DNA of 58,785 nucleotides from a virus (Duplodnaviria > Caudoviricetes), in the IMG/VR virus record IMGVR_UViG_3300021507_000132, positions 1 through 58,785 of that record; one strand, 5' to 3'. The notes beneath the pieces are model-generated. The model saw only the letters and a program-made list of their open reading frames with translations. It was not told the DNA's origin and did no database searches. Shown here one piece after another: positions 2,532-55,937 of the stretch; positions within the stretch are counted from its first letter, which is position 1; every line of letters begins with the position of its first letter. The translations under genes and the position numbers were made by a program.

Positions 2532-5500
2532 TTAATCACATTTAACAGCATTTATAGTACAAGCTTTGAGCAAAAATTCCGGAATCCACCATCTCCAGTA
2601 AGGATCTGTATAGTTACAGTTGTAATCTGCTTTTAAATAAATGTATGTGTTTTGCGAGAGTGTTTTGTTTGTATCTACTACCTTATATGTCGTGTTTAAT
2701 ATATATGGGTATGATAAGAACCAATCATAACCACTAAAATCGCCAGTACTATCACCGACAATTATCCGCCAAGTACCTTGTTTTTTGAATGCTGTAGGTC
2801 CATTATTAGCACTCACACCTGTTGACAATTCTAGCGAAGTATTGCGGTTCCACTGCGTTCCATTCCATTTGAATATATGTATATCGCTTGAAGATCCGTA
2901 TAACAAGTACCAATCACCGTATACATTAAAAATTTCCGGCTTCATATGTGTTAATCCTGTGAAAATGTCTAAACCAGCTCCTATGCTGTTGTTTATTACC
3001 CAGCATGTTCCATTCCATTGATAACTACCATTAAATCCGTGCAGACTTCCAACAATCAACTTCCATGTGTTGTCACTTTTAAACACACTAGGTGCCATTT
3101 CATAATCTGTTTGTTCCAAACCACATGTTAGATTAGCATAAGATACCCACTGAGTGCCATTCCATTTGTAACCTTGCCAATCTGAGTTGCCTGTACCTTC
3201 TAACAAGTACCAAATGTTATCTTTGTAAAATACACAAGGTGCTGCATAAGAATCTACTGCAGATATTCCGGAAACTACTGAGCTGTTAGACACCCAATGT
3301 GTACCGTTCCAACTGTATCCATATATATTGCCATTCTCATAGCCAACTATCATATTCCAACCATCACCTTTGTAGTACACTTCTGGATAAACGGTATAAC
3401 TAAAACCACTCAAGCCATTTGTCAGATTTGAATTTTCTACCCACACATTAGACCATTCATACGCTAACTCATAAAGTGTACTGTAATTTGTACTAAAAGT
3501 AATATTAATACAAGGGTGAGTTTCGTTTATTTTTATATATAAGTCAGCGGGTTGATCGTAGTTTAACCAAGAAATATTTATTATAGGCTTATTTTCTAGC
3601 ATTCCAACAGCTGATACATTTTTGTCTGTAGGAGAATTCGGTGTGAATTCAATGTATCCATAGTTCACTGGGATCGAGTAGTTAAATCTTGAATAAACGA
3701 CCTTCACAATTTGGGTGTCATTTGAAGCATTATAGTCAGCATTCCCATCAAAATGAGCAGTAACAGTTATATTATCGCTTCCGTAGTAGGTTATATTTAT
3801 GTTGTCCACCTGGATTGTGGAATTTGTCTCGGAACTTATCTTTATAGGAATGTCGTAATAACCAGAAGAAGTTTGAGCATCTAAATAATTCTGGATTGCT
3901 GTTGCGTTTATGTTTCTTGTAGGTTCTATTGTAAATGTATAATTAACTTCTATGTTTGAAACTTCCAAAATGCCTGCTGAACCAGAGTAAAATAGTATGG
4001 GAACATTACAATAACCTTCTGAATCGGCAGTACATGTTGATAAGTAATCATTTATCAGAGTAGCATTTAAGTTTACTGTTTGGGTTCCATTGTCTGGTGT
4101 AAATTCTCCAGACCAATTCCATTCAGCAATTCCACCCGAGTTTGCTGATTGTATATATGGACTATTAGAATACGATGGAAAACTAATATTTAGTATGTAT
4201 TGTTTGTCCTGTATGACAAACATATTATTTTCATGAATTTCAACATCATAATATTCATGATCGTTGCACTCTAACATGTCAAATACAATGGTATCTACTA
4301 GATTGAAAGAAGAATTATATTTGTATAATATGTTACAATCAGAATCATGATCACGTGTGTAAAAATAACTCCCATTATAATCCAAACCTGTTCCACCACT
4401 AATGCTATAAGAGTTAACTTGAGTTCCTGAAGTTGTATATTCAACAACACCACCCAATTCTTTAACAAATAAATTAGTTCCATCATTTGTAATATAGCGG
4501 GAATAGTTGCCTGTATTAAAAGATGTTATTTCGTTCCAATTAGAGTCATATTTGGTTACAAAATTGTCTCCTGTCCCGCCATCATAAACTGTGTAAAAAT
4601 AAGAACCCAATTTAGTTACATCTACTTCTGAATACCAATGCAAGTCGTGTTCTTCAATGTACGAACCCAAACTTGAAAATTTCACAACTTTTTTATTACC
4701 TGTAGGAAAAGAAAGAACCCAAAAATAATTACCATCAAACTCCAAACCAGAAGCATCATTATCTGTGTATTCTCCTACACTAAAATTAGTGATTGTAGAG
4801 TAACCATAACTTTTTAAGTCTAAATAAGCACTTGTAACATTAGAACTTTTAGGCAATCTCAAATACCTTTTTTTTGTTCCTTCCCCGCTAAAACTCAAAT
4901 TTTCTGCTGTGTTTCCATTGCTCAATTCATTAAGAGTTTGGTTGCCTTGACCCAAATATCCTGTAATAGAATCAACCAAAGTATCATTTACATAAATTTT
5001 AATGTTAAGAGGCCAATCTGGATTTTGAAACCCAGTTATATTAATATAAGCACTCTGAACCTCGTCATATTTGTTTAATCTTATATAGAATGTCTGATTT
5101 TCAGGGGCATTGGTGTAGGAGAGATTTTTCACAGTAGTAGAATCATTAAACTCTCCCAAAATAGAGTTTGTGGTCAAATTGTATTCAATAGTTCCGTTAT
5201 CGCAGACATAATTGTCCCCATACCCTATTTGGTCTATATCCAAACAAACATTAGCGTCAGAAACTAAATTTCCTGCAGAATTTGTGACATTTGCTTTCAA
5301 AACAGCTACAGTCCCATGTTCGTAGTATCTGTCAGCACTCACTCCGTCTAAATACAATGTAGTATTGGTAGCTCCTTTTGTTATATTTATTTCTCTCAAT
5401 TCTGTTTGGTTTGTATTACCAGCTGTGTCATTCACCCAAGCATAAAATTGATATATTCCTACATGTAATTCTGTTTTGTTGCTCCAATAGTTAGAAGAAT

Positions 5501-11808: not shown

Positions 11809-11844
11809 AATATTAATTCTTCAACTATTTATATTATGTTTTTT

Positions 11845-11903
11845 GCTGAGTCTTGGTAGAACTCTATTTATTTATGGATTCACTTCTTGTTTGGTAATTT
11901 TAA
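11845..11903 (-). ncRNA. distal remnant of TIGR-like array 1, separated by the IS insertion
   Basis: Minus strand reads CCA-AACAAGAAG-TG-AAT-CCA-TAAATAAAT-AG-AGTTCTA-CCA, i.e. same CCA-N9-(A/T)G spacing. Confidence 0.6.
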
Positions 11904-13128
11904 CCTCATGAGCGGGAAGTCTCCTCCCTTCAAGAAGGGGATGAGAGCGAACCATAAATAATTTATAAATTTGGGTTATATAAATATTATGGTAACCAAA
12001 ATGAAAACAACATATAAATTCAGGTTATATCCAAAGAAAGAGCAAGAAGAAAAACTAATAAGAACACTTGATATATGCAGAGATTTATACAACTATTTGC
12101 TTTCAGAAACAAGGAAAAGGAAGATACATAGATATGAAATACAATCAATGTTGGTTTCTTTGAAAAAAGATAGGAGAGAATTAAACGAAGTTTATTCAAA
12201 GGTATTGCAGATGGTCGTATTTATGCTATCACACAACCTAAAAGTATTACACCGATTAAAGAAAAAAGGCAATAAGGTTGGTAAATTGAGATACAAAAAG
12301 AAGTTCAAGTCATTTATATACAATCAATCTGGTTTCAAAATCATAAAAACGGGTAAAAGATTGGATATATTGAGATTGTCAAAAATAGGGGATATACCAA
12401 TAAGATTACATAGAGATATAGAAGGAAACATAAAACAGACAATAATCAAGAGATACAAATCTGGCAAATGGTTTGCTCTCGTTTGTGTTGATGGTATGAA
12501 AAATAAGGAAAGCGAAAATAATAGAATTGTTGGTATTGATGTTGGTGTAAAATACTTCCTAACAGATAGCGATGGGAGACACATAGAAAATCCAAGATTT
12601 TATGAAAAACTATTGAATAGAATAAAAATAGAACAGAGAAAACTATCAAGAAAGAATAAGGGTTCTAAAAATTGGGAAAAACAGAGAAGAAAATTAGCAA
12701 AATTATTTGAAAAACTTGTAAATAAAAGAAACGATTTTCTACACAAACTATCTAAATTCTATGCTAAAAACTACAAAATCATTTGTGTCGAGGATTTGAA
12801 GATAAAGAACATGGTTAAAAATAGAAATCTTGCACAGAAAATACTTGATGTTTCTTGGGGTGTTTTTATAAGACTGCTATCCTACAAGGTTGAAAGAACT
12901 GGTGGGATGGTGGTTAAGGTAAATCCAAAAAACACCTCAAGAGAGTATAAATTTGGAAAACTTGATAGAGATTATAATGCCTCTCTGAATATAATGATGA
13001 GAGGTTTATCGGGGTTGGGACAACCCTTTGTGCCTGTGGAGATAACACCTCTACGGGAACTCAAGTTAGTTCCCGCAAGTGTCATTGTTGAAGCAGGAAG
13101 CCCCATCCTTTAGGTTAGGGTAGTTCAC
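11904..13128 (+). mobile_element. non-autonomous IS200/IS605-family (tnpB-only) element
   Basis: Left end after TTTAA with hairpin CTCCTCCCTTCAAGAAGGGGATGAG; right end GGAAGCCCCATCCTTTAGGTTAGGGTAGTTCAC; no tnpA. Confidence 0.8.
12001..13113 (+). CDS. tnpB: TnpB RNA-guided endonuclease (zinc ribbon deleted)
   Basis: TYKFRLYP N-terminus; RuvC motifs GIDVG, VEDL, DRDYNA; start could be 11989. Confidence 0.93.
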   Translation: MKTTYKFRLYPKKEQEEKLIRTLDICRDLYNYLLSETRKRKIHRYEIQSMLVSLKKDRRELNEVYSKVLQMVVFMLSHNLKVLHRLKKKGNKVGKLRYKKKFKSFIYNQSGFKIIKTGKRLDILRLSKIGDIPIRLHRDIEGNIKQTIIKRYKSGKWFALVCVDGMKNKESENNRIVGIDVGVKYFLTDSDGRHIENPRFYEKLLNRIKIEQRKLSRKNKGSKNWEKQRRKLAKLFEKLVNKRNDFLHKLSKFYAKNYKIICVEDLKIKNMVKNRNLAQKILDVSWGVFIRLLSYKVERTGGMVVKVNPKNTSREYKFGKLDRDYNASLNIMMRGLSGLGQPFVPVEITPLRELKLVPASVIVEAGSPIL

Positions 13129-13769
13129 CTTTTTCTGGCTTGTTCGCTTAAGCTTTGTGATTTGCTAAAAACATATGGCTCGCTTTGTTAGGTTGGGTTT
13201 CTAATTTTTTGTGACTCATTTTTCTCGCTTTTCTTTCCAGATTATTTTTTGTACTTCAGGCTCGCTCATAGTGTCTTCGGGCACCACTAGTTTTTCTTTT
13301 GAGAATGGCTCGCTCTCCTGCCATGGGTTCCCTAAACTTTAGAGGCTCGCTCTTTCTTTTTGGATCTACTGCTGGTGAATGGCTAAGTCGCTAAACTATA
13401 ATGGGTAATTTCCCTTTATATAGTTGGCTCGCTAAGCACTTTTGGTTTGACTTTTTCCCCGTTGGCTTTAATTCGCTTAAACTCCCAGAGTTTTTGTAAT
13501 CCTTCATAGCTGTTCGCTATTTTTAGGTGGTTTTCTTAAAGCGATTGGCTAATCGCTTCGTGTTTATGGGCTGCTAAATTATGATGGCTGAATTTTTACT
13601 CGCTTTATTTTTTGGGTATGACCTCATAATTATGGCTAGCTTTGGTTTTTAGGGTCTACTAAATATGTGTGGGCTGTAACTTCGCTTAGCTTCAGTGGTT
13701 TTGCTTTCTTTCCACATGGCTTAGAGTAGTTCGCTGGTCTTCTATGGTGAATTCTCTTTTTTAATGGCT
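13129..13769 (-). ncRNA. TIGR-like tandem guide RNA array 1 (~16 units)
   Basis: Minus-strand units AGCCA-N9-AG-(4-9 nt)-CCA-N9-AGCG directly downstream of the Nop-domain gene. Confidence 0.88.
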
Positions 13770-13820
13770 GACGGTTCTTTGTGCTTATAATAAAAAAAAA
13801 GAAAAAAATAAAAAAAGCAA

Positions 13821-14696
13821 TTAAAACAAGCCGTCGGTTAGTGGCGGTTCATCAATATGTTGGTGATTCAGCTTTTCTTCCACGTACGGCGGTCTTATCG
13901 GCAAACCTTTTAGTTTTCTCGCAACGACATAGTAGTGAACCAGAAACCTTTTAACCATCTTTCGCATTGCTCTCCTGTGTATATGCAAAGGCTTCAATTT
14001 CAAATCTGTAACTCCATAGCTGTTAGGATATTTCGCATGAAGTTCTCCTGGTTTGAATTCCATTGCTTCCAATCTTTGTTTTTCTTTGTCATATATTTCC
14101 CGATAATAAGGCGTCCTTTGCTTTAGAAAACTGTCTCCGATCAACCAACTAACAACTTTAGCTCTTGGTCTGTATTGTGCTTTTTCTCCTCGCTTTCTTA
14201 CTCTTGCTTTTCCGTCTACAACGTCAAGACCTGCAAATTTCCATATGCTAGAGGGCGATTTTGCCTCCTCGCAATAACCGAAATTTCTAATCAAATTAAT
14301 TGCCAAGACCTTGGAAATTCCTCTAATTCTTTGTAACCACTGCCATATTGGTTCGTGAGCCAAGAACTCGTCCATTAATTTCAAGCATCTCTTTTCAAGT
14401 CTTTTGGTTTCGTGAGCAATCTGCGTAAATTCTTCTATAAAGCACTGCTCTTCTTTGCTTAATTTGCCTTGTTTTTTGACTATCTCTTTAAGTAGAAATT
14501 CAAGATTTTTGTCTATATATCTATTAATATATGCTTTGTCTTCTTTCCTGTCTTCTGGTATGTTCAACGGCAAATCCTCATATCTCCTTCTGATAAGGTT
14601 TCTGATTCTACTGAAGTTGGCTATCCTCGCTGCCTGGTGTCCGTAGTATACATTTGCTATTATTGTTGCCATTTCCACATTTGGTTTTGGTTCCAT
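13821..14696 (-). CDS. tasA: TIGR-associated Nop-domain protein, TasA-like (IS110-related RNA-binding domain, no nuclease domain)
   Basis: Coiled-coil YYGHQAARIA...; WLQRIRGISKVLA; SSIWKFAGL; YREIYDKEK; HRRAMRKMVKRFL; no DEDD RuvC or HNH domain; adjacent array. Confidence 0.85.
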   Translation of the reverse strand: MEPKPNVEMATIIANVYYGHQAARIANFSRIRNLIRRRYEDLPLNIPEDRKEDKAYINRYIDKNLEFLLKEIVKKQGKLSKEEQCFIEEFTQIAHETKRLEKRCLKLMDEFLAHEPIWQWLQRIRGISKVLAINLIRNFGYCEEAKSPSSIWKFAGLDVVDGKARVRKRGEKAQYRPRAKVVSWLIGDSFLKQRTPYYREIYDKEKQRLEAMEFKPGELHAKYPNSYGVTDLKLKPLHIHRRAMRKMVKRFLVHYYVVARKLKGLPIRPPYVEEKLNHQHIDEPPLTDGLF

Positions 14697-14763: not shown

Positions 14764-15180
14764 ATGCATTTGATTTTTCTAACAGAAGGACCAGAAACTC
14801 AACACAAACAATTTGTAAAATGGATAAGATCCAGACGATATAAAGAAGAAGGAAAATACAGAACTGGAGATGTTATACCTCATGTGTCTGAAATAAAATT
14901 GTATGATATTCGCATAAAAGCCTCTGCTAAAGACAGATTTTTGCAGGATCTTCAAAATCAAATAGGACTGACAACAAATACTGGTAATGTAAAAAGGCAT
15001 TTAGGCAAAACTCTGGACAGGTTGTATTGGCTCTTATCTAAGTTCACTTCATTAAAGAGAATAATCATTCCTGAACGCACAGAACCAAGAAATCCTAAAG
15101 AATTTAAAGGTTGGTTTTATGTTGTTCCTTTGGGCATGATTGAAGACTCTGTTAATGAAGAAGGAGAAGAATGGCTCTGA
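14764..15180 (+). CDS. hypothetical protein, paralog of 17702-18088
   Basis: Shared MHLI..E, E(I/L)(K/R)L.DI, LG.I.D..NEEG motifs. Confidence 0.75.
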   Translation: MHLIFLTEGPETQHKQFVKWIRSRRYKEEGKYRTGDVIPHVSEIKLYDIRIKASAKDRFLQDLQNQIGLTTNTGNVKRHLGKTLDRLYWLLSKFTSLKRIIIPERTEPRNPKEFKGWFYVVPLGMIEDSVNEEGEEWL

Positions 15181-15512
15181 AGCCGAATGTTCTAAACTCT
15201 ATGCTGCTCCAATTTCGCAATAAAAACAAAGAGATTAATCTCATAACTAGCATATTTGATATTCGGATAGAGTATTCTGGAACAAAAGGTAAATTGGTTT
15301 TGGATTTTGATTATGTTTTGCCTAAAGATTATTACACTGTTATAATTGCTGCCAGTAACGATCCTAATTTTAACAAAGCAAGTTCAAGTGGTTCTTTAGG
15401 GTATTGGTTTATCAGGATTATTTTTAAACACGCTAAATTAATCAATACTTCACCTCTTATCCTTACTGGGAAAGCTTCAAATATCAAAAAAAACTGGTTC
15501 TCAGTATTATGA
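15171..15512 (+). CDS. hypothetical protein
   Basis: Overlapping start/stop within a 3-gene plus-strand cassette. Confidence 0.5.
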   Translation: MALKPNVLNSMLLQFRNKNKEINLITSIFDIRIEYSGTKGKLVLDFDYVLPKDYYTVIIAASNDPNFNKASSSGSLGYWFIRIIFKHAKLINTSPLILTGKASNIKKNWFSVL

Positions 15513-15787
15513 GTGAAGATTTGTATATACAAGATATACTATTTCCTAAAAATTTCAGAACAAGTTATATACTTATTATAACTTCTGTTTTCAGTTCTAA
15601 ATATAAATTTGGGCATACAAATGTGATCAAGTACTCTCTTACAAGATTTCATGACAATTTTACTGAAAAAGGCATTTTGTATTCTAAAGATTTTAGCAAT
15701 TGCGAAGACATGCTTAAAAATCATAAACAATTAGTAAAAAAATACAAAGTTAAACGCAAGAACCAAAAAATATATTTGGAATATTAG
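15509..15787 (+). CDS. hypothetical protein
   Basis: ATGA-coupled to the previous ORF. Confidence 0.5.
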   Translation: MSEDLYIQDILFPKNFRTSYILIITSVFSSKYKFGHTNVIKYSLTRFHDNFTEKGILYSKDFSNCEDMLKNHKQLVKKYKVKRKNQKIYLEY

Positions 15788-17701: not shown

Positions 17702-18088
17702 TTATAATAAGTCTAATCCTTCTTCATTCTTTCTGTCAGGAATCGCTCCTAATATTATAAAATAACAGAATGTTTGAGGTGGTTTTTGATTGTTTAATGT
17801 TTTAGTTCCCATTTTGCTTAAATCTACTGGTTGTAATGGCGTCACTGCTTGTATCATTTCTCTCATATTCTCAACGTCTTTAGGATTTACATGCCCTGTT
17901 CCTTTAGGCAGTCTTTCCAATAACTGATCAACGCAAGATTCGTCTAGAGTAATATCTAACAATCTTAATTCTCTGCAACAAGGATATGTAGTTTCGCCTT
18001 TCAAATTCTTAACTGGAATAGAATGAATCCACTCTTGTAATTTTTCCCAATCTCCTGAAGAATGTTCTATCAAAGCAATCAAATGCAT
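17702..18088 (-). CDS. hypothetical protein, paralog of 14764-15180
   Basis: Shared motifs as noted for 14764-15180. Confidence 0.75.
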   Translation of the reverse strand: MHLIALIEHSSGDWEKLQEWIHSIPVKNLKGETTYPCCRELRLLDITLDESCVDQLLERLPKGTGHVNPKDVENMREMIQAVTPLQPVDLSKMGTKTLNNQKPPQTFCYFIILGAIPDRKNEEGLDLL

Positions 18089-26758: not shown

Positions 26759-29182
26759 TTATATATTTATACTTTGTTTCAAAGCTTCAAAATTAAGACT
26801 TATGCCCAATAAAATATTTCTTTCTTCTTTTGTCAAATCAACAGCTTCCCATAATTTTTTGTAAGCTTCTGAACCGTACTCTGGACTAGCAGTCCAATTC
26901 ATTCTTCCAGATTTCTTTCTTCTCGCTATCTCTTTTAATATCTTTGTTGCTAATTGAATGATTTGTTCTTTAGTGAATTTGATTTTCTTGCCTTGCAGAA
27001 TTCTGGAGTAATAAGCTACTGCCAATCTAAAATCGTCAGCCAGTACTTCATTTTCCATGTTATGAGCATTGTAATTGTAAATGTCTTGTATCAACTCTAA
27101 AGTCCTGTGAAATTTGTAGTCTTCTTGATTTTTAACAGTAGTTGCGAAACTCCAGTTCTCTACAAAAGTCTGCGTTCCTTTAGGAACTGCTGCTGGTTTG
27201 GGCTCAGGAAAATGCTCTACCCACTCAAATTCATACGCATATAATTCATTTTTATCATCCCACCATTCTTTTCGTTCTGTTTCTGTTATTTTATGTTTTT
27301 CTCGGAGTTCTTCAAATTCTTTCAGACTTATTTTCTTGACATTTGTAAGTTTGATAATGCCATAACAAAACTCATTGTCCAACAAGTAAAGAGGTTTGTC
27401 TAACATATTTTTGTAGTTTCTTGACTTCACTATCAGTTTTTTTTCATTATTGTATATCATTTCTGCGTGTGGTTTAACTAAATATATGCCTGTTCTTCTG
27501 TTTTCTGCTAGTTGAACTGAATCCTTAGCAATCCATAACAAATCTGTATACTCTCTGACTTCAGGCCTGACGCTAGACGGCTGAGTTCCTCTACTTTTTC
27601 TTTTGAGTTTCTTTACTGTTACTTCCTTTTTGTGTTGCGATAATATTTTTTTATAATCAATATATGGTGAATCAGAAGTGCTAACCAATATTATTTTACA
27701 TTTTTTGGCCAGTTTTTCAATGAGTTCTGGAATCTTTTGTCTATCAAATTCAGGTATTACAAAATCTTTTTGCATTAAGATTGAATTTATATTTTTATAC
27801 TGATGAGCAGTATATGGAACTTCGTCTCCTTCTTTAATGTCATAAGGAGGATCCCAGTAAATAACCTCAACATTTGGAATCTCCAAATCAAAAATATCTT
27901 TGTTAGTAACTACTGCTTCTCCAGGTATTATTTTTTTGAGAATATCAGCATAACTGGCTTTGGCAAATTCAACAGCTGAGTGGACTGTCCATTTGTAAGG
28001 TCTAAATACTCCAAAACTGCCCATAAATCTTGTAAGCATGTCAGCACAAATAGCTAACAAAAAGTCTTTAACAGGATTTTTCTGATCATGAGCATAAGTA
28101 ACCAAACCGTCTATATATTTTCTTAATTCCACAGAACCAGGTCTTTTTAGATTTGATTTAGTAAGCCAGCCTTCAACAGGTTTAGCTTTTAAGAATTTCT
28201 CAAACTCTTCTTGAGGCAGTTTATAGTTGCCTAAAATTGCTTTAGAATAGTAATATGCTACAGGACTTATATCATTAACAATTACTTTAGCTCCTCTTTG
28301 TTTCATTCTCCAAGCTATAACAGAACTGCCAGTCATAGGATCAAAAAATGTTTTTGTATCTTTTGGAATTTCTGCTAGTATTTCGTCAGCATTCAATCTT
28401 TTGCTCCCAACATACCTAAAAAGTTCATAAATTTCTTGTAAATTTTCAATTACCATCCCATCATAAGCCAATCTTACATCAGTAGAAATTCCATGAAATT
28501 TACAATATTCATTTATTCTTTTCTGAGCTTTATAATGATCTGGGTAAGTTTTGCCTATTTGAGTTAAAATTGCTCTTTTAGGTTTGTATTTCTTAATTAG
28601 TTGTAACGCTTGTTCAGTATTCATATGCCCTCTTATCTTGCGATCAAAATACATAGCAGCATCAATTATCATTAAATCTACATTTTCAAAATATTTTTCA
28701 GACTCAGAAGGCACAGATTCCATGTCTTCAGCATATAAAACATCATTAAATCTAAAGCCTAAACAAGGGTACTTTTCGCCAGTAGGAAACGGCTCTGCAT
28801 GAATTACTCTAAAAGGTGTGAATTGAACACCAAGAACTTGAAATGGTTTTCCGGGTGTTATGTCATGTTCTTCTAATTCTAAAGTCTGCCAGATTTCATG
28901 AATTAAGTTGAAATTGTGTTTTAGTGTATAAACGGGTATCTTGCCAAATCTCTCAACAACTTTAGGCAAACCTTTTACGCAATCACTATGCATGTGTGTA
29001 ATTAAAACAGCATCTATTTTATCTATAGCATTCTTGAACAATTGTTCTTCTATCATTGGTGTAGCGTCTATAAGAATATTGCCTTTTTTTGTTTCTAGCA
29101 GCAGAGAGGAATTGCTCCTGTAATTTTTTCCTCTGCCTTTTACGGCTATGGCAGGACCCGTTCCTAGGAATACAAGATTCAT
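26759..29182 (-). CDS. multidomain protein: metallo-beta-lactamase (PhnP-like) + DNA adenine methyltransferase + ASCH-like + unknown domain
   Basis: FLGTG, LITHMHSDC; RYVGSK, FDPMTGS, YWDPPY; IYLVKPHAEMIYNNEKKLIVKS. Confidence 0.82.
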   Translation of the reverse strand: MNLVFLGTGPAIAVKGRGKNYRSNSSLLLETKKGNILIDATPMIEEQLFKNAIDKIDAVLITHMHSDCVKGLPKVVERFGKIPVYTLKHNFNLIHEIWQTLELEEHDITPGKPFQVLGVQFTPFRVIHAEPFPTGEKYPCLGFRFNDVLYAEDMESVPSESEKYFENVDLMIIDAAMYFDRKIRGHMNTEQALQLIKKYKPKRAILTQIGKTYPDHYKAQKRINEYCKFHGISTDVRLAYDGMVIENLQEIYELFRYVGSKRLNADEILAEIPKDTKTFFDPMTGSSVIAWRMKQRGAKVIVNDISPVAYYYSKAILGNYKLPQEEFEKFLKAKPVEGWLTKSNLKRPGSVELRKYIDGLVTYAHDQKNPVKDFLLAICADMLTRFMGSFGVFRPYKWTVHSAVEFAKASYADILKKIIPGEAVVTNKDIFDLEIPNVEVIYWDPPYDIKEGDEVPYTAHQYKNINSILMQKDFVIPEFDRQKIPELIEKLAKKCKIILVSTSDSPYIDYKKILSQHKKEVTVKKLKRKSRGTQPSSVRPEVREYTDLLWIAKDSVQLAENRRTGIYLVKPHAEMIYNNEKKLIVKSRNYKNMLDKPLYLLDNEFCYGIIKLTNVKKISLKEFEELREKHKITETERKEWWDDKNELYAYEFEWVEHFPEPKPAAVPKGTQTFVENWSFATTVKNQEDYKFHRTLELIQDIYNYNAHNMENEVLADDFRLAVAYYSRILQGKKIKFTKEQIIQLATKILKEIARRKKSGRMNWTASPEYGSEAYKKLWEAVDLTKEERNILLGISLNFEALKQSINI

Positions 29183-32681: not shown

Positions 32682-33611
32682 TTATAATTTCTGATTTTGT
32701 TTTTTGAATTTTTTTCCTATTTCTTGTCCAATTCTTTTTTTAACAGCTTTTTCCAGTTTTTTTAACATTTCACTATCAAAATCTCCTTTTACTTTTAGTC
32801 TTTCCATAAACCAATTTACAACTCTCGCAGTCTTTTTGCTTATGTCTTCTCTAGTGCCAATGCAAGCTCTTTCTACTAAATCAAGATATTCTTTAAATTC
32901 TTTGTCTGTGAATCCTGCCTTTAATCCAAGTTCTGGTTCTGCATAACCTTGTAATACATGATCTAATATCACGTTTTCTGGTCTGGATTTCGGAACTTTC
33001 TTTATCACTTTTTTAATCCTGTCTTTAAACTCTTCAGGACAATCTTCCCATTTGTATTTCAATATTTTATTTCCGTCTACGGATTTCAAAACTACACCTT
33101 CGCAATATTCTGGCAATTTTTTCATTTCCTTTTTCAGTTTTTTCAGATTGCTAAACAAACCAATATTTCCAATAAAGTTCAAATCAAAAGTCTTACAGAG
33201 ATTTTCAACGACTTCAGCATTCAAAAACCTTGTCTTTTCTGGTCTTCTCAAATTCATGATGTCAAAAACAAAATAGTCAAAATCTTTATCACCTTTATAA
33301 TTGCTCATTGTATTCTTGCCAACAACTTCCATTACAAGCACTAGATTGGGATAGACTCTGAAAAACCTTTCCAGTTTCTTGCCAATGTTTTCTCTTATTA
33401 GATTGTTGGTCTTTTCGTCAATTAAACCACCTCTCAAAAATGCCACCCAATCTTTATCTACTTTTGCTACTCTCACGTTGTAACCGTTAATCTTCTGTTG
33501 AGCAAACATTGGTTCTTCTAATTTCACTAAATGCAGTAATTTTGGATACGGAGGTATAATTGTGTCTCCCACTTTTACTCTCCCCAAACTGCTTATTATT
33601 TCTGCTCTCAT
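32682..33611 (-). CDS. ATP-dependent RNA ligase (archaeal Rnl3/Pab1020-like)
   Basis: QQKINGYNVRV, FLRGG, MEVVG, FVFDI, EGVVLK, ILKY. Confidence 0.82.
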   Translation of the reverse strand: MRAEIISSLGRVKVGDTIIPPYPKLLHLVKLEEPMFAQQKINGYNVRVAKVDKDWVAFLRGGLIDEKTNNLIRENIGKKLERFFRVYPNLVLVMEVVGKNTMSNYKGDKDFDYFVFDIMNLRRPEKTRFLNAEVVENLCKTFDLNFIGNIGLFSNLKKLKKEMKKLPEYCEGVVLKSVDGNKILKYKWEDCPEEFKDRIKKVIKKVPKSRPENVILDHVLQGYAEPELGLKAGFTDKEFKEYLDLVERACIGTREDISKKTARVVNWFMERLKVKGDFDSEMLKKLEKAVKKRIGQEIGKKFKKQNQKL

Positions 33612-34195
33612 TTTAATTCCAAACAATCACAAACTTTCCTAAGTCTGTAATAAAGATTAGGAATTTCGGCAGCAGAAAATCCATTCACGCTGTTTAACAA
33701 ATCAACAAATTCACTTTTGGTTTTGACAAGTCCTGCTTCTGCCATTGCCAAATACAAAATTGCCAAAGAAGTATACTTTGAATACAATAGAGAATATTTG
33801 CCTTGTTCTCTTATCAACTTCAAATAATAATTGGCTTTCCTTTTTACTTTGCCATTGCATTTTAACAATTTCTCATATTTTTTCAAAAACTCGTCAGCAG
33901 AAGCTGGTCTTACATTCAGATTTATTGTTTGTTTGATTTTTCTGCTCACTTTAGAAACTCGTCTGACGGGTGTATTTGCAATGCTGCTTAAATCCGAAAT
34001 TGCAACAGGATAATTCAAAGACCTTAAACCAACATACACCAATCCGCAAGCTATATCTTTAGTATCATGCAAAGCGATAAATTTTTCCTTAACAATTTTC
34101 TCATATAAATCTAATACTCTCTGCTTTTGTTTTTTATTGACTTCTAATGCTGCAAAAATATGTTCCAAATGTTCCAATATATTCTTGTTTCTCAT
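33608..34195 (-). CDS. TFB/TFIIB cyclin-repeat protein lacking the zinc ribbon
   Basis: ACGLVYVGLR..YPVAISDLS..LNVRPASADEFL..LAILYLA two cyclin-like repeats. Confidence 0.7.
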   Translation of the reverse strand: MRNKNILEHLEHIFAALEVNKKQKQRVLDLYEKIVKEKFIALHDTKDIACGLVYVGLRSLNYPVAISDLSSIANTPVRRVSKVSRKIKQTINLNVRPASADEFLKKYEKLLKCNGKVKRKANYYLKLIREQGKYSLLYSKYTSLAILYLAMAEAGLVKTKSEFVDLLNSVNGFSAAEIPNLYYRLRKVCDCLELK

Positions 34196-34451: not shown

Positions 34452-34595
34452 AAGTGTTTATTGTATTTATGGCAAGTCAAACAAATCTCCTATGTTTGAG
34501 CTGTAAAAGACATTATGACAGTACTTGTCCTGGTTGGGTAGAAGACATAACTGTTGCTGGGAAAGCTTGTAAGTACTATATTAAAAAAGATTCTC

Positions 34596-35393
34596 ATGAT
34601 GTTCAACAACAACACTTGTAAAGTCTTGCTAGGAGACTGTTTGGAGCTAATGAAAGAATTGAAAGATGAATCTATAGACATGATTTTAACAGATCCTCCT
34701 TATATGATTTCAAGAGAAGCGAAAATTGCCAGAAGCAGAAATCCTCTCAAGAGAAGGATGAAATATCAAGGCAAAGACATTTCCATGATGTTTGGAGAAT
34801 GGGATATTTTTGAAACTGAAGACCAATACTGGAAGTTCATATATGCTGCATTGAAACAGTTTAAAAGGATACTGAAAATAGGAGGTCATATGCTTATCTT
34901 CTTTGATAGGTTCAAAATTACGCCATTAGTGGAATGGTGCAGAAAGAATGATTTTATAGCAAGGCAGCCATTATGGTGGTTAAAGAGTAATCCAGTTCCA
35001 ATGGCAAAGAAAGTTTCTTTTATGAGTGCTCATGAATTGATTTTCTGGGCAACAAAGCATACCACTTCTAGAAAATACTCTACATTTCACTACGAACTTG
35101 GACAACATCCAGACTATTTCGTTCATTGTATTCCGCCAAAAAAATCAAAATCAGATGGAATAAGACAACACCCTTGCCAAAAACCAGTAAAATTAATGGA
35201 ATGGCTTATATCATATCTTTCAAACGAAAACGATACAATATTAGATCCGTTTGCAGGTTCTGGCACTACTGGCGTTGCTGCTATAAACTTGAACAGAAAA
35301 TGCATCCTTATTGAAAAATCTCCGCATTATTACAGTGTAATAATTTCCAGACTAAAACCTCTTTTGTCCCAAAGAAATTTAAATAATATTTAA
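34596..35393 (+). CDS. DNA methyltransferase (beta class, N4C/N6A)
   Basis: LTDPPY, HPCQKP, LDPFAGSGTT. Confidence 0.93.
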   Translation: MMFNNNTCKVLLGDCLELMKELKDESIDMILTDPPYMISREAKIARSRNPLKRRMKYQGKDISMMFGEWDIFETEDQYWKFIYAALKQFKRILKIGGHMLIFFDRFKITPLVEWCRKNDFIARQPLWWLKSNPVPMAKKVSFMSAHELIFWATKHTTSRKYSTFHYELGQHPDYFVHCIPPKKSKSDGIRQHPCQKPVKLMEWLISYLSNENDTILDPFAGSGTTGVAAINLNRKCILIEKSPHYYSVIISRLKPLLSQRNLNNI

Positions 35394-35613: not shown

Positions 35614-36609
35614 AGCCTCTTTCTGCAAGAAAAACCTGCAAGAGATAGCGAGCCATAAAAAAATAGAAATCCTAAGAAAGTGAGCGAAAACAGCCAAATA
35701 AAGTAAGTAAAACGCCCTTTGGCTCATAGCGAAACAGCCAAAATACAAGAGAAAAACCCTTAAAAGTATAGCGAAATAAACAGCCATAAGATGAAAGCTA
35801 AACCTTAAAATCATAGCGGCAGCCATAAGATGAAAGAAAAGAACCATTAAAGCTTAGCGAGCCTAGTTCACACAGAAAAACCATGTGGAGATAGCAGCCA
35901 CACAAAAGAAGCAAACCTTGTTTAAAAAGCGAATTAGCCACCAATTAACAGAAATCCCAAGAAAGTTGAGCGAGCCTAAAGTCTTCAGACTACCAGAAAG
36001 AGCGAGCGAGCCATCAAGATAGAGTATACCCTTTGGCTAATAGCGGTTAGCCATGTTGAAGAAGCAAACCTTGGTTCTCTAGCATTAGTAGCAAAAAGAG
36101 CGAGCCAAAACCTACAAAGCCAAAAATAGTTAATGAACCTTATAAAATTAGCGAGCCAAAAATGAAGAACAAACTCTGAAACTTCCAGCGAATCTTTGTA
36201 TAGCTGGTATTTAAGAGAAAACTCATAAAAGTATAGCGTTAGCCAATGAAATAAAGAAACCCTAAGATAGATTGCGAGCCATATGAATTGAGAAACCCAT
36301 AATAATCTAGCGTTAGCAGCCAATGAAACCTAGAATCACCTTACTGCAGAAGCGAGCCTGAGAATACAAACAAGCACATAAACTTTGAGCGTGACAGCCT
36401 TATATATATAGCAAAACCCAAGTAACTTGAGCGAGCCAAAAATATCAAGGTGCCCATGAAAGTTGAGCGTGCCTTTGGTTCTTAGCAAACCCAAAAGCAA
36501 AAAGCGAGCCTGGTTTGCATAGCAAACCATAAAATTAAAGCGAGCAACTTAAAGCGACCACTACAAATAAGCGAGTCATATAACTATTGTCACCCATTTA
36601 ACACAAGCG
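35614..36609 (+). ncRNA. TIGR-like tandem guide RNA array 2 (~25 units), orphan
   Basis: Units AGCC(A/T)-N9-AG-(4-7 nt)-CC(A/T)-N9-AGCG, e.g. AGCCA-TATGAATTG-AGAAACCCA-TAATAATCT-AGCG. Confidence 0.9.
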
Positions 36610-36621
36610 AAAATCCCAATA

Positions 36622-37470
36622 CTACTCAAAAATTATCTCAAAATGATCTTCGCCTCTCAAATCTCTTTGTTCTATGCCAACTTTCTTTTTAATCACAGGT
36701 AAGAATTCAGGATTCAACTCTATCCCAATACAATTCCTTCTCAATTCTTTAGCCACTTTCATTGTGGTTCCAGAACCAAGAAAAGGATCCAGAACCCAAT
36801 CACCTTCAAATCCCAGTTCCGGCACAGCAGCAAAAGAAAACATTTTAATAATTCTGGCAGGCAATTCTTCAGGAAACATAGCAATATGTTCTTTCTGTCT
36901 TATCCCCGGAAATTTCCAATGTCCAGTAAAACATTTCCTCCAATCTTCCAAACTCAATTTTGATTCGTCTTTAATTCTCTTATCCAATTTCCTGCTTTTC
37001 CCAGGTTTCTTAAATATCAACACAAATTCATAATCATATTCCACAATCCCGTTCCTAGGATAAGGAAAAGAACCCATAACACTTGCTCCTCCACTGGGAT
37101 TGACATTTCCAACTTTCTGCCATATAATCCCACCCATATAATCAAATCCGATTTTCTCGCATTCCAGAACCAAATTTGCCTGAACCGGTAAAACTTTATA
37201 CCTGCCCAAAACAGGACTGGTATTATAGACGTCGCCAACATTGATAACAAGCCGACAACCAGATTCCAGAACTCTATAACATTCTTTCCACACAATATTC
37301 AGATCTTCAATATACTTCTCAAAAGAACTGCTAAATCCGATTTGATTCTCAATTCCATAATCTTTAATATGAGCATAAGGAGGAGAAGTAACAATTAATT
37401 GAACAGAATTATCAGGCAACCATTTTCTCATATTCCTCGCGTCTCCAATAATTATTTTATATTCGCACAT
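36622..37470 (-). CDS. DNA methyltransferase (beta class, likely N4C)
   Basis: VTSPPY, HIAMFPEEL, LDPFLGSGTT; likely start MCEYKII. Confidence 0.93.
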   Translation of the reverse strand: MCEYKIIIGDARNMRKWLPDNSVQLIVTSPPYAHIKDYGIENQIGFSSSFEKYIEDLNIVWKECYRVLESGCRLVINVGDVYNTSPVLGRYKVLPVQANLVLECEKIGFDYMGGIIWQKVGNVNPSGGASVMGSFPYPRNGIVEYDYEFVLIFKKPGKSRKLDKRIKDESKLSLEDWRKCFTGHWKFPGIRQKEHIAMFPEELPARIIKMFSFAAVPELGFEGDWVLDPFLGSGTTMKVAKELRRNCIGIELNPEFLPVIKKKVGIEQRDLRGEDHFEIIFE

Positions 37471-37474
37471 AATT

Positions 37475-37822
37475 ATGATAAGCACAAAAAACATAATACT
37501 AGTTGCTGTGTTTGTTTTTACAATTTTAATAGGAATTACCAGCGTATATTTGATTGTAAATACAAACTTGTCCAAATACGTGCCGTTAGGATATAAAACC
37601 ATAACCATGGATGGAATAGACAAATATGAAGAAATATCTAGTGATGTTCCTGTTATATTGGTTGTTGAAGGAATTGGCAATATAATAAAAATAAAGGACA
37701 ATACTGAAGTGAAAAAGATAAAAATTAGTGGAATAGATATTGTTATATACCTTCCTTTAGATTGTTATCCTGAAATAGAAGATGATGGCATTGATACAAA
37801 AATAATACATATAAGTAATTAA
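37475..37822 (+). CDS. membrane-anchored small beta-solenoid-like protein
   Basis: N-terminal TM; repeated GID/GIG units. Confidence 0.55.
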   Translation: MISTKNIILVAVFVFTILIGITSVYLIVNTNLSKYVPLGYKTITMDGIDKYEEISSDVPVILVVEGIGNIIKIKDNTEVKKIKISGIDIVIYLPLDCYPEIEDDGIDTKIIHISN

Positions 37823-47499: not shown

Positions 47500-48240
47500 A
47501 TGTCGTGGGAAATAGATAATGAAGATAAATTAGTAAGCGAAAAGTGTCCAGAAATGGAAAAAGAAGGCAAAGAAGTTGTGTTAGAAAATAATGTAGTTGG
47601 CAAAATAATCACATTGTTGAACAAGTATCCAGATTTGGAATGGGGTGCGTATTTGATTGGTGAAGAACAAAAAGACAAATTTTTGATTAAAGATTTGACA
47701 TTAATGAAGCAAGAAGTAACTGGAACAACAGTAGAATTTGTAGAAGAGGATTTTCCAAAGAATTGCATTGGCTGGATTCATAGTCATAATTCAATGGACG
47801 CATTTCTGTCAAAAACAGATGTAAAAACAGCAATGCTGTATAAAGTGTCAATAGTAGTAAATAATGCTTTGAATTTTGTTTGCAGAGTTAAAAAGCAATT
47901 GCCTTGCGGCAGAGTTACTTTAGTGCCTTCAAAAGTAATATTACAAGGCATAGATGTTGATACAAGCAAAATTGTTGAAAAACCAAAGAAAGAATCTATT
48001 GTAATAGTAGACCAGTCATTTCAAAATATTTGTCCAGTTTGCGGTTGCAAATTGAGCAGAAGAAAGAGCAAATTGGCTTATTGTCCTCATTGTCGCAATT
48101 TTGTTCATAGGAGGTGTTTTAATGAAGAGTGGAATATGTGTGCTAACTGCGTAGAAATGTTTAGCAAAGATGAAAAAGAAAGATCTAGAGATTTGTGGAG
48201 AGAGTATTTTAATGAAGATTATCTTGACTTCTACTATTAA
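47500..48240 (+). CDS. JAB/JAMM metalloprotease fused to C4HC3 RING-like finger
   Basis: LEWGAYLIG, GWIHSHNSMDAFLSKTD; CPVC..CPHC....H..C..CANC. Confidence 0.85.
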   Translation: MSWEIDNEDKLVSEKCPEMEKEGKEVVLENNVVGKIITLLNKYPDLEWGAYLIGEEQKDKFLIKDLTLMKQEVTGTTVEFVEEDFPKNCIGWIHSHNSMDAFLSKTDVKTAMLYKVSIVVNNALNFVCRVKKQLPCGRVTLVPSKVILQGIDVDTSKIVEKPKKESIVIVDQSFQNICPVCGCKLSRRKSKLAYCPHCRNFVHRRCFNEEWNMCANCVEMFSKDEKERSRDLWREYFNEDYLDFYY

Positions 48241-48245
48241 AGAGT

Positions 48246-48821
48246 ATGGAAAAAATTGTAATAATAGGTTGTGGTGGTGTGGGAAGCAGAATTGCTGAGT
48301 TTTTAGTCAGAGACAATTTAAGAGAAAAATTCATGGACATGCTTTATTTAGTAGATCATGATACTGTTGAGTTTAAAAATCTGCAAAGACAATTCTATTT
48401 TCAGCAAGACATTAATTTCAAAAAAACAGAAGCTTTAAAAGCCAGATTAAAGAGCATAGACCCAGATTTGGTAATAGTTACTCACAATATACAAGTAAAC
48501 AAAGACAATATAGCGTTGTTTGACAGCAAAATGTTTTGTTTTTGTTGCACTGACGACATTAATGGGAAAAGAGCGATTTCAGAGCATTTTGAGAATTATA
48601 TAATAGCAAGCGTTGATAGAGATGTTGTTGAAATTACTGTAAATCCTGGGTATTTAAATGTCTGGTCTTTTGGAACAGGTTATTCAGTTTATCAAGATGT
48701 TGTAAATAACAATATGGCAGCTATGATTGCGTTTAAATTGTTTAAAAATTATTTGAATGGTATGGAATTGAAAAATGTAAAACTAAATATAAAAGAATTA
48801 ATTGAAAGGTCTATTTCGTAA
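48246..48821 (+). CDS. ThiF/E1-like adenylyltransferase
   Basis: IIGCGGVGS, VDHDTVEFKNLQRQ, KTEAL, CCTD. Confidence 0.9.
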   Translation: MEKIVIIGCGGVGSRIAEFLVRDNLREKFMDMLYLVDHDTVEFKNLQRQFYFQQDINFKKTEALKARLKSIDPDLVIVTHNIQVNKDNIALFDSKMFCFCCTDDINGKRAISEHFENYIIASVDRDVVEITVNPGYLNVWSFGTGYSVYQDVVNNNMAAMIAFKLFKNYLNGMELKNVKLNIKELIERSIS

Positions 48822-55249: not shown

Positions 55250-55937
55250 TATATGAAAAGGATGTAAGGAATAAACAAAGTGTGAACGCGGGGATTGATG
55301 AAGTAATATTACAAGCGAAATGCTTGTAATACTTTAACGCAAATCCCCGGTTCTAGGAAGCATAGTATTGTGCGTGGCTTTAATACCAGACAAAGATGAA
55401 GAGTATTTGAGAAACAGAGGTGTAAAAGACTCTAAATTAATTGAAAGGAACAGATTACACAGACTGGCAAAAGAATTGATGGAAACTTACAAATACAAAG
55501 TTGTTAAAATAAAGCCGCATATTATCAGCAAAGCTGACAATTTGAACTTGTTGGAAATTGAATATGTAATCAAATTAATCAAATGGGTTAACCAGTTTGA
55601 GCCAAAAAATATCTATATGGATTGTTTAACAGCAAATGTCAATACTTGTTGGAACTATTTTCTAGATCTTGGATTTAAACAAGATAACCTAAAAATTGTT
55701 CCGAAAGCAGATGAGAAGATTATAAGCGTTCAGGCAGCAAGCATTATTGCTAAGTATCATTCAGATAAAGAAATAGAGCATTTGCAAAAAAAGTATCCAG
55801 ATATGGGTTCTGGAGAACCTTCAGATAGAAAAACAATTGAGTTTCTGAAAAAGCATTTGGACAACCCTCCATTAGATTGCATCAGAACGAGCTGGATTAC
55901 ATTCAAGAGACTAAAGCAGAAACAAGAAAATGACTAG
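55246..55937 (+). CDS. rnhB: RNase HII, split by a 32-nt intron (exons 55246-55305 and 55338-55937)
   Basis: Spliced product AGIDEVRKSPVLGSIVLC..GVKDSK..LNLLE..YMDC..KADE..AASIIAK..GSGEPSD..RTSW. Confidence 0.88.
55306..55337 (+). other. bulge-helix-bulge (archaeal endonuclease-type) intron
   Basis: GAAG/CTTT 4-bp helix, bulges TAA and AAC, 10-bp intron stem TATTACAAGC/GCTTGTAATA, exon stem GGGGATT/AATCCCC. Confidence 0.82.

Follow-up and report, generated by a model that had tools for sequence, protein, structure and literature searches.

Is the protein gene and repeat array of a tailed-virus genome a working RNA-guided system and, if so, what would such a system do without a nuclease? The DNA that raises this question, hereafter the window, is IMG/VR virus record IMGVR_UViG_3300021507_000132 over its positions 1-58,785 (58785 b; Duplodnaviria; Caudoviricetes). 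The locus comprises the gene tas, which encodes a protein of 291 amino acids, an adjacent array of dual-spacer units (array 1) and a second array of the same kind (array 2) elsewhere in the record. TIGR-Tas systems were published by Faure et al. in 2025 (PMC12045711), and a preliminary description of the window had already read the locus as a TIGR array with a TasA-type protein. That interpretation is borne out here by a Tas family model whose cut-off the protein passes (NCBIfam NF052498), by the protein's leading matches to TasR and TasH, and by the dual-spacer anatomy of the arrays with their motifs of boxes C and D. On the analysis presented below, the virus very probably possesses a working TIGR-TasA system, and its likely function would be RNA-guided DNA binding and repression without cutting.

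The tas gene occupies 13821..14696 on the minus strand, and family models, PDB sequence searches and structure comparison all place its product among the Tas proteins. The NCBIfam equivalog model TIGR_Tas_endo (NF052498) matched residues 12-260 with 162.2 bits against a cut-off of 100, whereas the NCBIfam IS110 model NF033542 gave the 291-residue protein 20.7 bits against a cut-off of 140. Pfam returned only Transposase_20, below threshold at 18 bits against a cut-off of 21.3, and detected no HNH or RuvC family in the protein at E-values up to 1. The top sequence matches in the PDB (phmmer) were TasR (9mty_A, E 1.6e-28), taken from the complex reported by Faure et al. (PMC12045711), and TasH (21kl_A, 9w03 and others, E 4.6e-19). 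As the alignment to the 331-residue TasR begins at TasR residue 135, the RuvC part of TasR has no counterpart in the window protein.

An AlphaFold2 model built from 11 homologues (predicted local distance difference test 80.3; predicted template modelling score 0.76) is helical apart from a short hairpin at about residues 159-164, and no RuvC-like fold is present in it. The domains, with approximate boundaries, are a coiled coil at residues 5-113, a Nop domain at about 115-263, and a C-terminal loop that contains Y271 and H278. Foldseek ranked TasR 9mty first (E 3.4e-10), then seven TasH chains including 9w04, the E-values for 9mty and the TasH structures running from 3e-10 to 9e-7, and after these the IS621 and ISCro4 recombinases (about 1e-3); matches to Prp31 and Nop56/58 were weak (E about 1). 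Identity in the structural alignments to TasR and TasH is just 17-28%. The preliminary description had proposed a Nop-type region without RuvC or HNH and a comparison with Nop, IS110 and Tas proteins as the way to check it; that comparison agrees with the proposal, with the Tas model passed, TasR and TasH ranked first, IS621 of the IS110 family next, and no nuclease in either Pfam or the model. Because it lacks an HNH or RuvC domain and its model is nearly all helical, we assign the protein to TasA.

The C-terminal loop also ties the protein to relatives that process their own guides. SpTasH is described as cutting its own array transcript using Y289 and H296 (PMC13421893). These residues align with Y271 and H278 of the window protein in the PDB sequence alignment, and both are invariant in 11 of the 11 aligned homologues. 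This tyrosine/histidine (Y/H) loop is reported to mark the dual-repeat clade of TIGR systems and, in the same account, to be missing from all stem-loop clades (10.64898/2026.09.09.750476). Compared with the tas gene of a related viral locus, L002 (83% identical), the window gene shows pN 0.11 and pS 0.78, which argues that tas is under purifying selection.

Array 1 lies on the minus strand at 13145..13769 and consists of 15 units of the form AG-CCA-N9-AG-loop-CCA-N9-AGCG. It was parsed by anchoring on the conserved AGCCA and AGCG motifs and reading each unit as AG, box C, nine nucleotides (nt), box D, loop, box C, 9 nt, AG and CG. Published systems mostly have 9-nt spacers, their TasR arrays carry CCA as box C and UG as box D, and the box motifs may diverge yet covary between edge and loop (PMC12045711). 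The 5' AG is present in 15 of the 15 units and the 3' AGCG in 14 of them; the first box C is CCA in 10, CCT in 2 and something else in 3, and the second is CCA in 9 and something else in 6. Both variable segments measure 9 nt in all units under this motif-anchored parse, with the exception of unit 12 (13310-13263), whose second spacer can also be read as 12 nt; unit 3 (13675-13638) has canonical boxes once its register is shifted by one base. Loops range from 4 to 9 nt (one of 16), unit cores from 36 to 41 nt (one of 48), and linkers between units from 0 to 11 nt.

Most of what the preliminary description had said of this array holds: the variable segments are nearly always 9 nt, with unit 12 ambiguous, the linkers vary in length, and motif counts confirm that the box after a spacer is AG instead of UG. 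It had also reported about 16 units on the same strand as tas. The strand is correct, and the count is better given as 15 full units and a lone AGCCA half edge at 13136..13140 (minus strand), a 5' anchor without a partner that abuts the inferred right end of an inserted TnpB element. Published arrays are described as ending in a truncated edge repeat (PMC12045711). The predicted fold of the array 1 RNA is no more structured than that of shuffled sequences (z = -1.34) and so gives no sign of flanking stems; likewise, no stems were found in the flanks of the parsed arrays beyond two pairs of the edge.

Between array 1 and tas is a 51-nt region (13770..13820, minus strand) composed of a long T-rich run followed by a ATTATAAG motif. 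The same run and ATTATAAG precede the array in L002 and in four metagenome loci, L222-L225. If the host is archaeal, the two may be a terminator and a TATA-like promoter. A scan of the window found bacterial-type promoter and terminator sites at chance level; the host itself is probably archaeal.

Array 2 was found through the chance controls for the array motifs. The window has 21 copies of CCA-N9-AGCG where 1.02 are expected (maximum of 100 shuffles, 4), and 9 of these copies fall in array 1 and 10 in array 2; AGCCA-N9-AG occurs 22 times against 5.3 expected. Located at 35614..36609 on the plus strand, 20.9 kb from tas and between two N6/N4 DNA methyltransferase genes, array 2 contains 24 clean units and two broken ones (36085-36117 and 36543-36573). 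Its motifs are those of array 1: AG follows spacer A in 20 of the 24 units, AGCG is kept in 21, and box C is CCA or CCT. The two arrays together hold 39 well-formed dual-spacer units, or about 41 if the broken ones are included, and most units have AG after both spacers and CCA or CCT before both. This use of AG and CCW alike at edge and loop is the covariation expected of a symmetric dimer (PMC12045711). The units do not share the uniform 36-nt length of the dual-repeat class; the half edges are kept nevertheless, AGCG in 35 of 39 units and AGCCW in 34 of 39.

How such a system might operate can be proposed from relatives that have been solved and tested. The arrays would be transcribed, and a TasA dimer, joined by its N-terminal coiled coil, would bind CCA or CCU (box C) and AG (box D) at both edge and loop. 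Y271 and H278 would then cut in the edge repeats, releasing guides of about 36-41 nt, some with linker tails. The two 9-nt spacers of a guide would pair with opposite strands of an 18-bp site, one strand of which reads as spacer A and then spacer B in reverse complement. The preliminary description had assumed this target layout, and by our own derivation it is the one that yields the 8-nt 3' overhangs reported to be left by cuts of published systems (PMC12045711). Without a nuclease, the complex would remain on the DNA and block transcription or some other DNA transaction. Consistent with this, MbTasA is described as binding target DNA and reversibly repressing both reporter and chromosomal genes (bioRxiv 10.64898/2026.09.09.750476), and PlTasA as binding DNA stably (bioRxiv 10.64898/2026.08.11.744272).

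A number of observations weigh against the view that the system works. Spacer A is followed in array 1 by AG in only 8 of 15 units, by AA in 3 and by something else in 4. Across both arrays, the canonical 4-nt loop core, which gives a 36-nt unit, is found in 14 of 39 units, the rest measuring 37-41 nt (one of 48), and 20 of 37 junctions carry extra sequence, which in 18 cases is a linker of 2-11 nt and in the other two a gap of 31-33 nt occupied by a broken unit. Of 78 boxes C, 21 have T at the third position; for PlTasA, the corresponding adenine is reported to be conserved and stacked (10.64898/2026.08.11.744272). The tail of array 1 also contains an insertion element. The metagenome runs that contain the locus are DNA only, with no RNA run listed. 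Finally, none of the 39 spacer pairs has a self-target in the window outside the arrays when gaps of 0-2 bp and up to three mismatches are allowed: sites in the true layout numbered 0, 5 and 37 at up to one, exactly two and exactly three mismatches, against 0, 2 and 32 for a reversed-layout control and means of 0.1, 3.4 and 43 for shuffled pairings.

A wider search gave a similar picture. No exact target was found for 698 distinct spacer pairs in the window and the viral loci L002-L009 and L071-L150 with arrays masked, and allowing one mismatch gave 5 sites in the true layout and 2 in the control; for single 18-mers in whole collections, matches by chance are to be expected. Most probably, the targets are to be sought in the host or among rival mobile elements.

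One alternative accepts the protein and its guides and gives them a different task. TasA and its guides could serve some other DNA transaction, such as bending DNA for an integrase, segregating or positioning the provirus, or recruiting a nuclease or methyltransferase. An aid to integrase and a ParB-linked TasA are raised as open possibilities in PMC12045711, the record is classed as a provirus, and N6/N4 methyltransferase genes flank array 2. This last adjacency is a single observation, however, and neither a ParB-like gene nor any other conserved partner was seen beside tas, where the three small open reading frames (ORFs) at 14764-15787 belong to no family. As the only TasA function that 10.64898/2026.09.09.750476 presents as shown so far is binding and repression, we regard a different task as unlikely.

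The other alternative of some weight is that the locus is a decaying relic, in which the protein may still fold while the arrays drift and yield no working guides. How irregular the arrays are can be judged against related ones. We searched IMG/VR with a pattern that requires one unit between two unsplit AGCG-AGCCW edges, which matched at least 151 stretches. Among the matches listed are 80 loci from about 60 contigs, 57 of the 80 with a Tas homologue (25-38% identity) within 2.5 kb. On at least six contigs, matches are separated by more than 5 kb, and a second array is therefore not unusual. In these related arrays, the 4-nt loop core is present in 879 of 915 parsed units (a count that includes window units fitting the strict regular expression), against the 14 of 39 seen here, and the distance between units is zero at 578 of 709 junctions, with a further 98 at 32-40 nt that represent one unit missed by the regular expression, against zero-length linkers at 17 of the 37 junctions of arrays 1 and 2. 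The arrays of the window are far less regular than their relatives in IMG/VR. Along with the two broken units of array 2 and the TnpB element in the tail of array 1, this irregularity speaks for decay. However, the comparison loci were fetched by a pattern that demands regular edges, and the contrast is thus partly built in. Decay is also hard to reconcile with an intact tas under purifying selection, an invariant processing dyad, spacers that stay at 9 nt and half edges that are kept in most units; moreover, the variation falls in the middle of the loop and the middle of the edge, which in the solved TasR are described as being without base-specific contact (PMC12045711). The insertion element, for its part, lies beyond the last full unit. 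We therefore consider a relic quite improbable and retain a working TIGR-TasA system as the better account.

The insertion is a solo TnpB element at about 11904..13135 on the plus strand, with a tnpB ORF at 11971-13113 (380 amino acids) that matches TnpB families in Pfam and NCBIfam and converges on tas and array 1. The syntenic loci L002 and L222-L225 lack it. Logan contigs of two metagenome runs, X3 and X4, which derive from relatives at about 90-99% identity, cover both of its flanks and almost nothing of 12055-13100. An X4 contig tracks the window as far as 11903 and there departs into sequence that, taken on the strand of the array, reads like the closing part of a TIGR unit and then a half edge. 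From this gap in coverage and the point at which the X4 contig departs, the element is placed at about 11904-13135, its left boundary supported by the X4 contig and its right boundary inferred. It would thus separate the last half edge of array 1 from a decayed array tail at 11840..11903 (minus strand), in which, read by eye, the CCA-N9 spacing is visible and the boxes are incomplete; this stretch directly follows the half edge in the X4 relative. The TnpB is of the IS200/IS605 type, with no TnpA nearby. The sequence just past its right end, the usual place of a TnpB guide, is antisense to the last unit of array 1.

Two further alternatives fare much worse. A viral small ribonucleoprotein of the box C/D kind, guiding RNA modification, would share with Nop5 ribonucleoproteins a Nop fold and a box C/D-like layout (PMC12045711), and the weak fold matches to Nop56/58 and Prp31 point the same way. 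In contrast, the boxes here are CCA and AG, the guides are 9 nt, there are no motifs of K-turn length, the close relatives are DNA-targeting Tas proteins, and TasR is reported to be inactive on RNA substrates (PMC12045711), so that this reading is very improbable. That the protein is a remnant IS110-type transposase beside unrelated repeats, as the 'transposase' label of phrog_4285 (E 1.6e-44) and the weak Transposase_20 match might suggest, is hardly credible given the failed IS110 and passed Tas cut-offs, the lack of a DEDD/RuvC domain in Pfam and in the model, the ranking of TasR and TasH above IS621 in both sequence and fold searches, and repeats that are far above chance and carry Tas motifs.

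With a working TIGR-TasA system as the preferred reading, the relatives of the locus bear on how it evolves. The preliminary description had placed it as inserted within the tail module, and this needs correcting in the light of L002 and the four metagenome loci L222-L225, which have a Tas protein 83% identical to that of the window in the same gene order: the locus is instead a stable, syntenic part of the virus lineage. All five carry a six-unit array in which every spacer differs from those of the window. Among themselves, they differ at 0-1.4% of tas positions and at up to 10% of spacer positions. In strains whose tas genes are 98.6-99.4% identical, differences accumulate in individual spacers. 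L222 and L225 show 11 differences in 108 spacer positions, 5 in 872 tas positions and 5 in 149 array positions outside the spacers (Fisher p = 4.9e-8 for spacers against tas and 0.035 for spacers against the non-spacer array), so that spacers are changed about 18 times more often than tas among near-identical strains. The changes are clustered, with 6 of 9 positions altered in one spacer and 3 of 9 in another. In a similar manner, an X4 contig matches the window at 13357-13557 and 13625-13701 and has a diverged segment of equal length (67 nt) across 13558-13624.

In this array family, pairs of units that share exactly one spacer are enriched within arrays, with 18 of 6100 within-array comparisons and 8 of 237153 between-array comparisons, and across IMG/VR loci the only arrays that share units are overlapping pieces of one contig. 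The strain comparison gives a hint that spacers are altered where they stand, and at a higher rate than the remainder of the locus; these observations of spacer change are few in number and do not come from a designed test. Half-shared units, with one spacer exact and the other different, can be seen in array 2 of the window, neighbouring units included, at 35782-35859 and between 35736-35773 and 36202-36238. In L002, neighbouring half-shared units at 5024-5096 have spacers one letter apart.

We tentatively put forward two proposals as a pair, and as a pair they are possible rather than probable. The first is that the arrays renew spacers in place, by exchange of a single 9-nt cassette or of a half unit, and not by addition at an end. 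The second is that the lineage represents a relaxed dual-repeat form, in which a TasA with the Y/H loop would be combined with unequal guides (loops of 4-9 nt, linkers of 0-11 nt and no stems). If this were true, the lineage would stand between the uniform 36-nt dual-repeat architecture and the stem-loop architecture, and it would be the box-proximal half edges, not a constant length of the unit, that set where processing occurs.

Turning to the virus itself, the window encodes a terminase, a portal, a major head protein, and neck and tail proteins, has a G+C content of 33%, and contains one Tas gene; the IMG/VR annotation gives the record as provirus class with a CheckV completeness of 78%. 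The terminase is at most 26% identical to those of deposited phages, among which only six records have Tas relatives. The closest relatives of the TnpB (57%) are in metagenome-assembled genomes of Bathyarchaeia and Aenigmatarchaeota, and the terminase was not found in the four archaeal assemblies that bear the nearest of them. The runs examined that contain the locus are labelled hydrothermal vent and marine sediment. On the minus strand at 33608-34195, an ORF of 195 amino acids has a borderline match to the TFIIB repeat (23.5 bits against a cut-off of 23.6) and may be a viral transcription factor resembling archaeal transcription factor B; such a factor would suit an archaeal host. Judging from the TnpB relatives, the TFIIB-repeat match and the run labels, an archaeal host is the better guess, and one that we hold with moderate confidence.

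The remaining features of the window are varied. Of the three small ORFs next to tas, which form a cassette conserved in L002, the one at 14764-15180 (plus strand, 138 amino acids) has a paralogue in the head-neck module at 17702-18088 (minus strand, 128 amino acids; 27% identity, E 1e-9), and the pair matches no known family. DNA methyltransferase genes are found at 26759-29182, 34554-35393 and 36622-37701, two of them being those that flank array 2, and one of the three is fused to a metallo-beta-lactamase-fold domain. Adjoining genes at 47500-48821 (plus strand) encode a JAB/MPN protease-like protein (E 2e-7) and a ThiF/E1-like protein (E 8e-22), a ubiquitin-like modification pair within a virus. 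Genes for an RNA ligase (E 5e-16) and an RNase HII (E 4e-23) are located at 32682-33626 and 55368-55937; these nucleic-acid enzymes may bear on RNA ends. No Rfam family at gathering thresholds and no tRNA gene was found in the window, and Tandem Repeats Finder returned only A-runs.

Among known systems, the locus is a genuine TIGR-TasA locus, of a kind in print since 2025 and frequent in viral metagenomes, and not a new type. TasA is described as the commonest effector, with many loci in phages and archaeal viruses, and an archaeal virus with a similar array is among the work cited there (PMC12045711). The points that the window adds are a second array, irregular units alongside a TasA with the Y/H loop, an insertion element, and divergence focused on the spacers. 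How spacers are gained or changed, and what TIGR arrays target, are treated as open questions of the field (PMC12045711; 10.64898/2026.09.09.750476). The window offers a natural example for them: a near-complete viral genome in which one TasA would serve two arrays and about 41 guides, for which close strains can be compared and the insertion element taken as a natural marker. Its irregular units are also a natural test of whether processing through the Y/H loop depends on a 36-nt unit.

The nearest counterparts are dual-repeat TasA systems such as FpTIGR of Flavonifractor plautii (PMC12045711). As these are described, the window shares with them a solo Nop protein with a coiled coil and no nuclease, an array beside the gene, units with a pair of 9-nt spacers, repeats at edge and loop that open with box D and close with box C, and the Y/H processing loop, which 10.64898/2026.09.09.750476 ties to the dual-repeat clade. 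It departs from them in having AG as box D where TasR arrays are reported to have UG, A or T at the third position of box C, units of uneven length instead of a uniform 36 nt, linkers that split about half of its edge repeats, and a second array 20.9 kb away. TaTasR (9MTY) and SpTasH (9W03, 21KL) match the window protein in the coiled coil and Nop domain, and the Y289 and H296 of SpTasH are conserved in it; each of them has an N-terminal RuvC or HNH nuclease of its own and cuts both strands, whereas the window protein has neither nuclease.

Stem-loop TIGR systems (PlTasA, MbTasA, PateTasR and CsTasR) likewise include nuclease-less, DNA-binding TasA members and have variable loops and linkers. 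Their units are described as flanked by palindromic stems and their proteins as lacking the Y/H loop (10.64898/2026.09.09.750476), and the window is the opposite on both counts. IS110/IS621 recombinases possess a homologous Nop-like RNA-binding domain and come third, after TasR and TasH, among the fold matches (8wt9, E 8e-4); what sets them apart from the window locus is their DEDD/RuvC domain, their single two-loop bridge RNA and their transposon ends. Type IV and V-M CRISPR systems and dCas9-like binders offer an analogy, drawn in PMC12045711, in non-cutting, RNA-guided DNA binding on mobile elements, and differ from TIGR-TasA in their unrelated proteins, single long spacers and dependence on a protospacer-adjacent motif.

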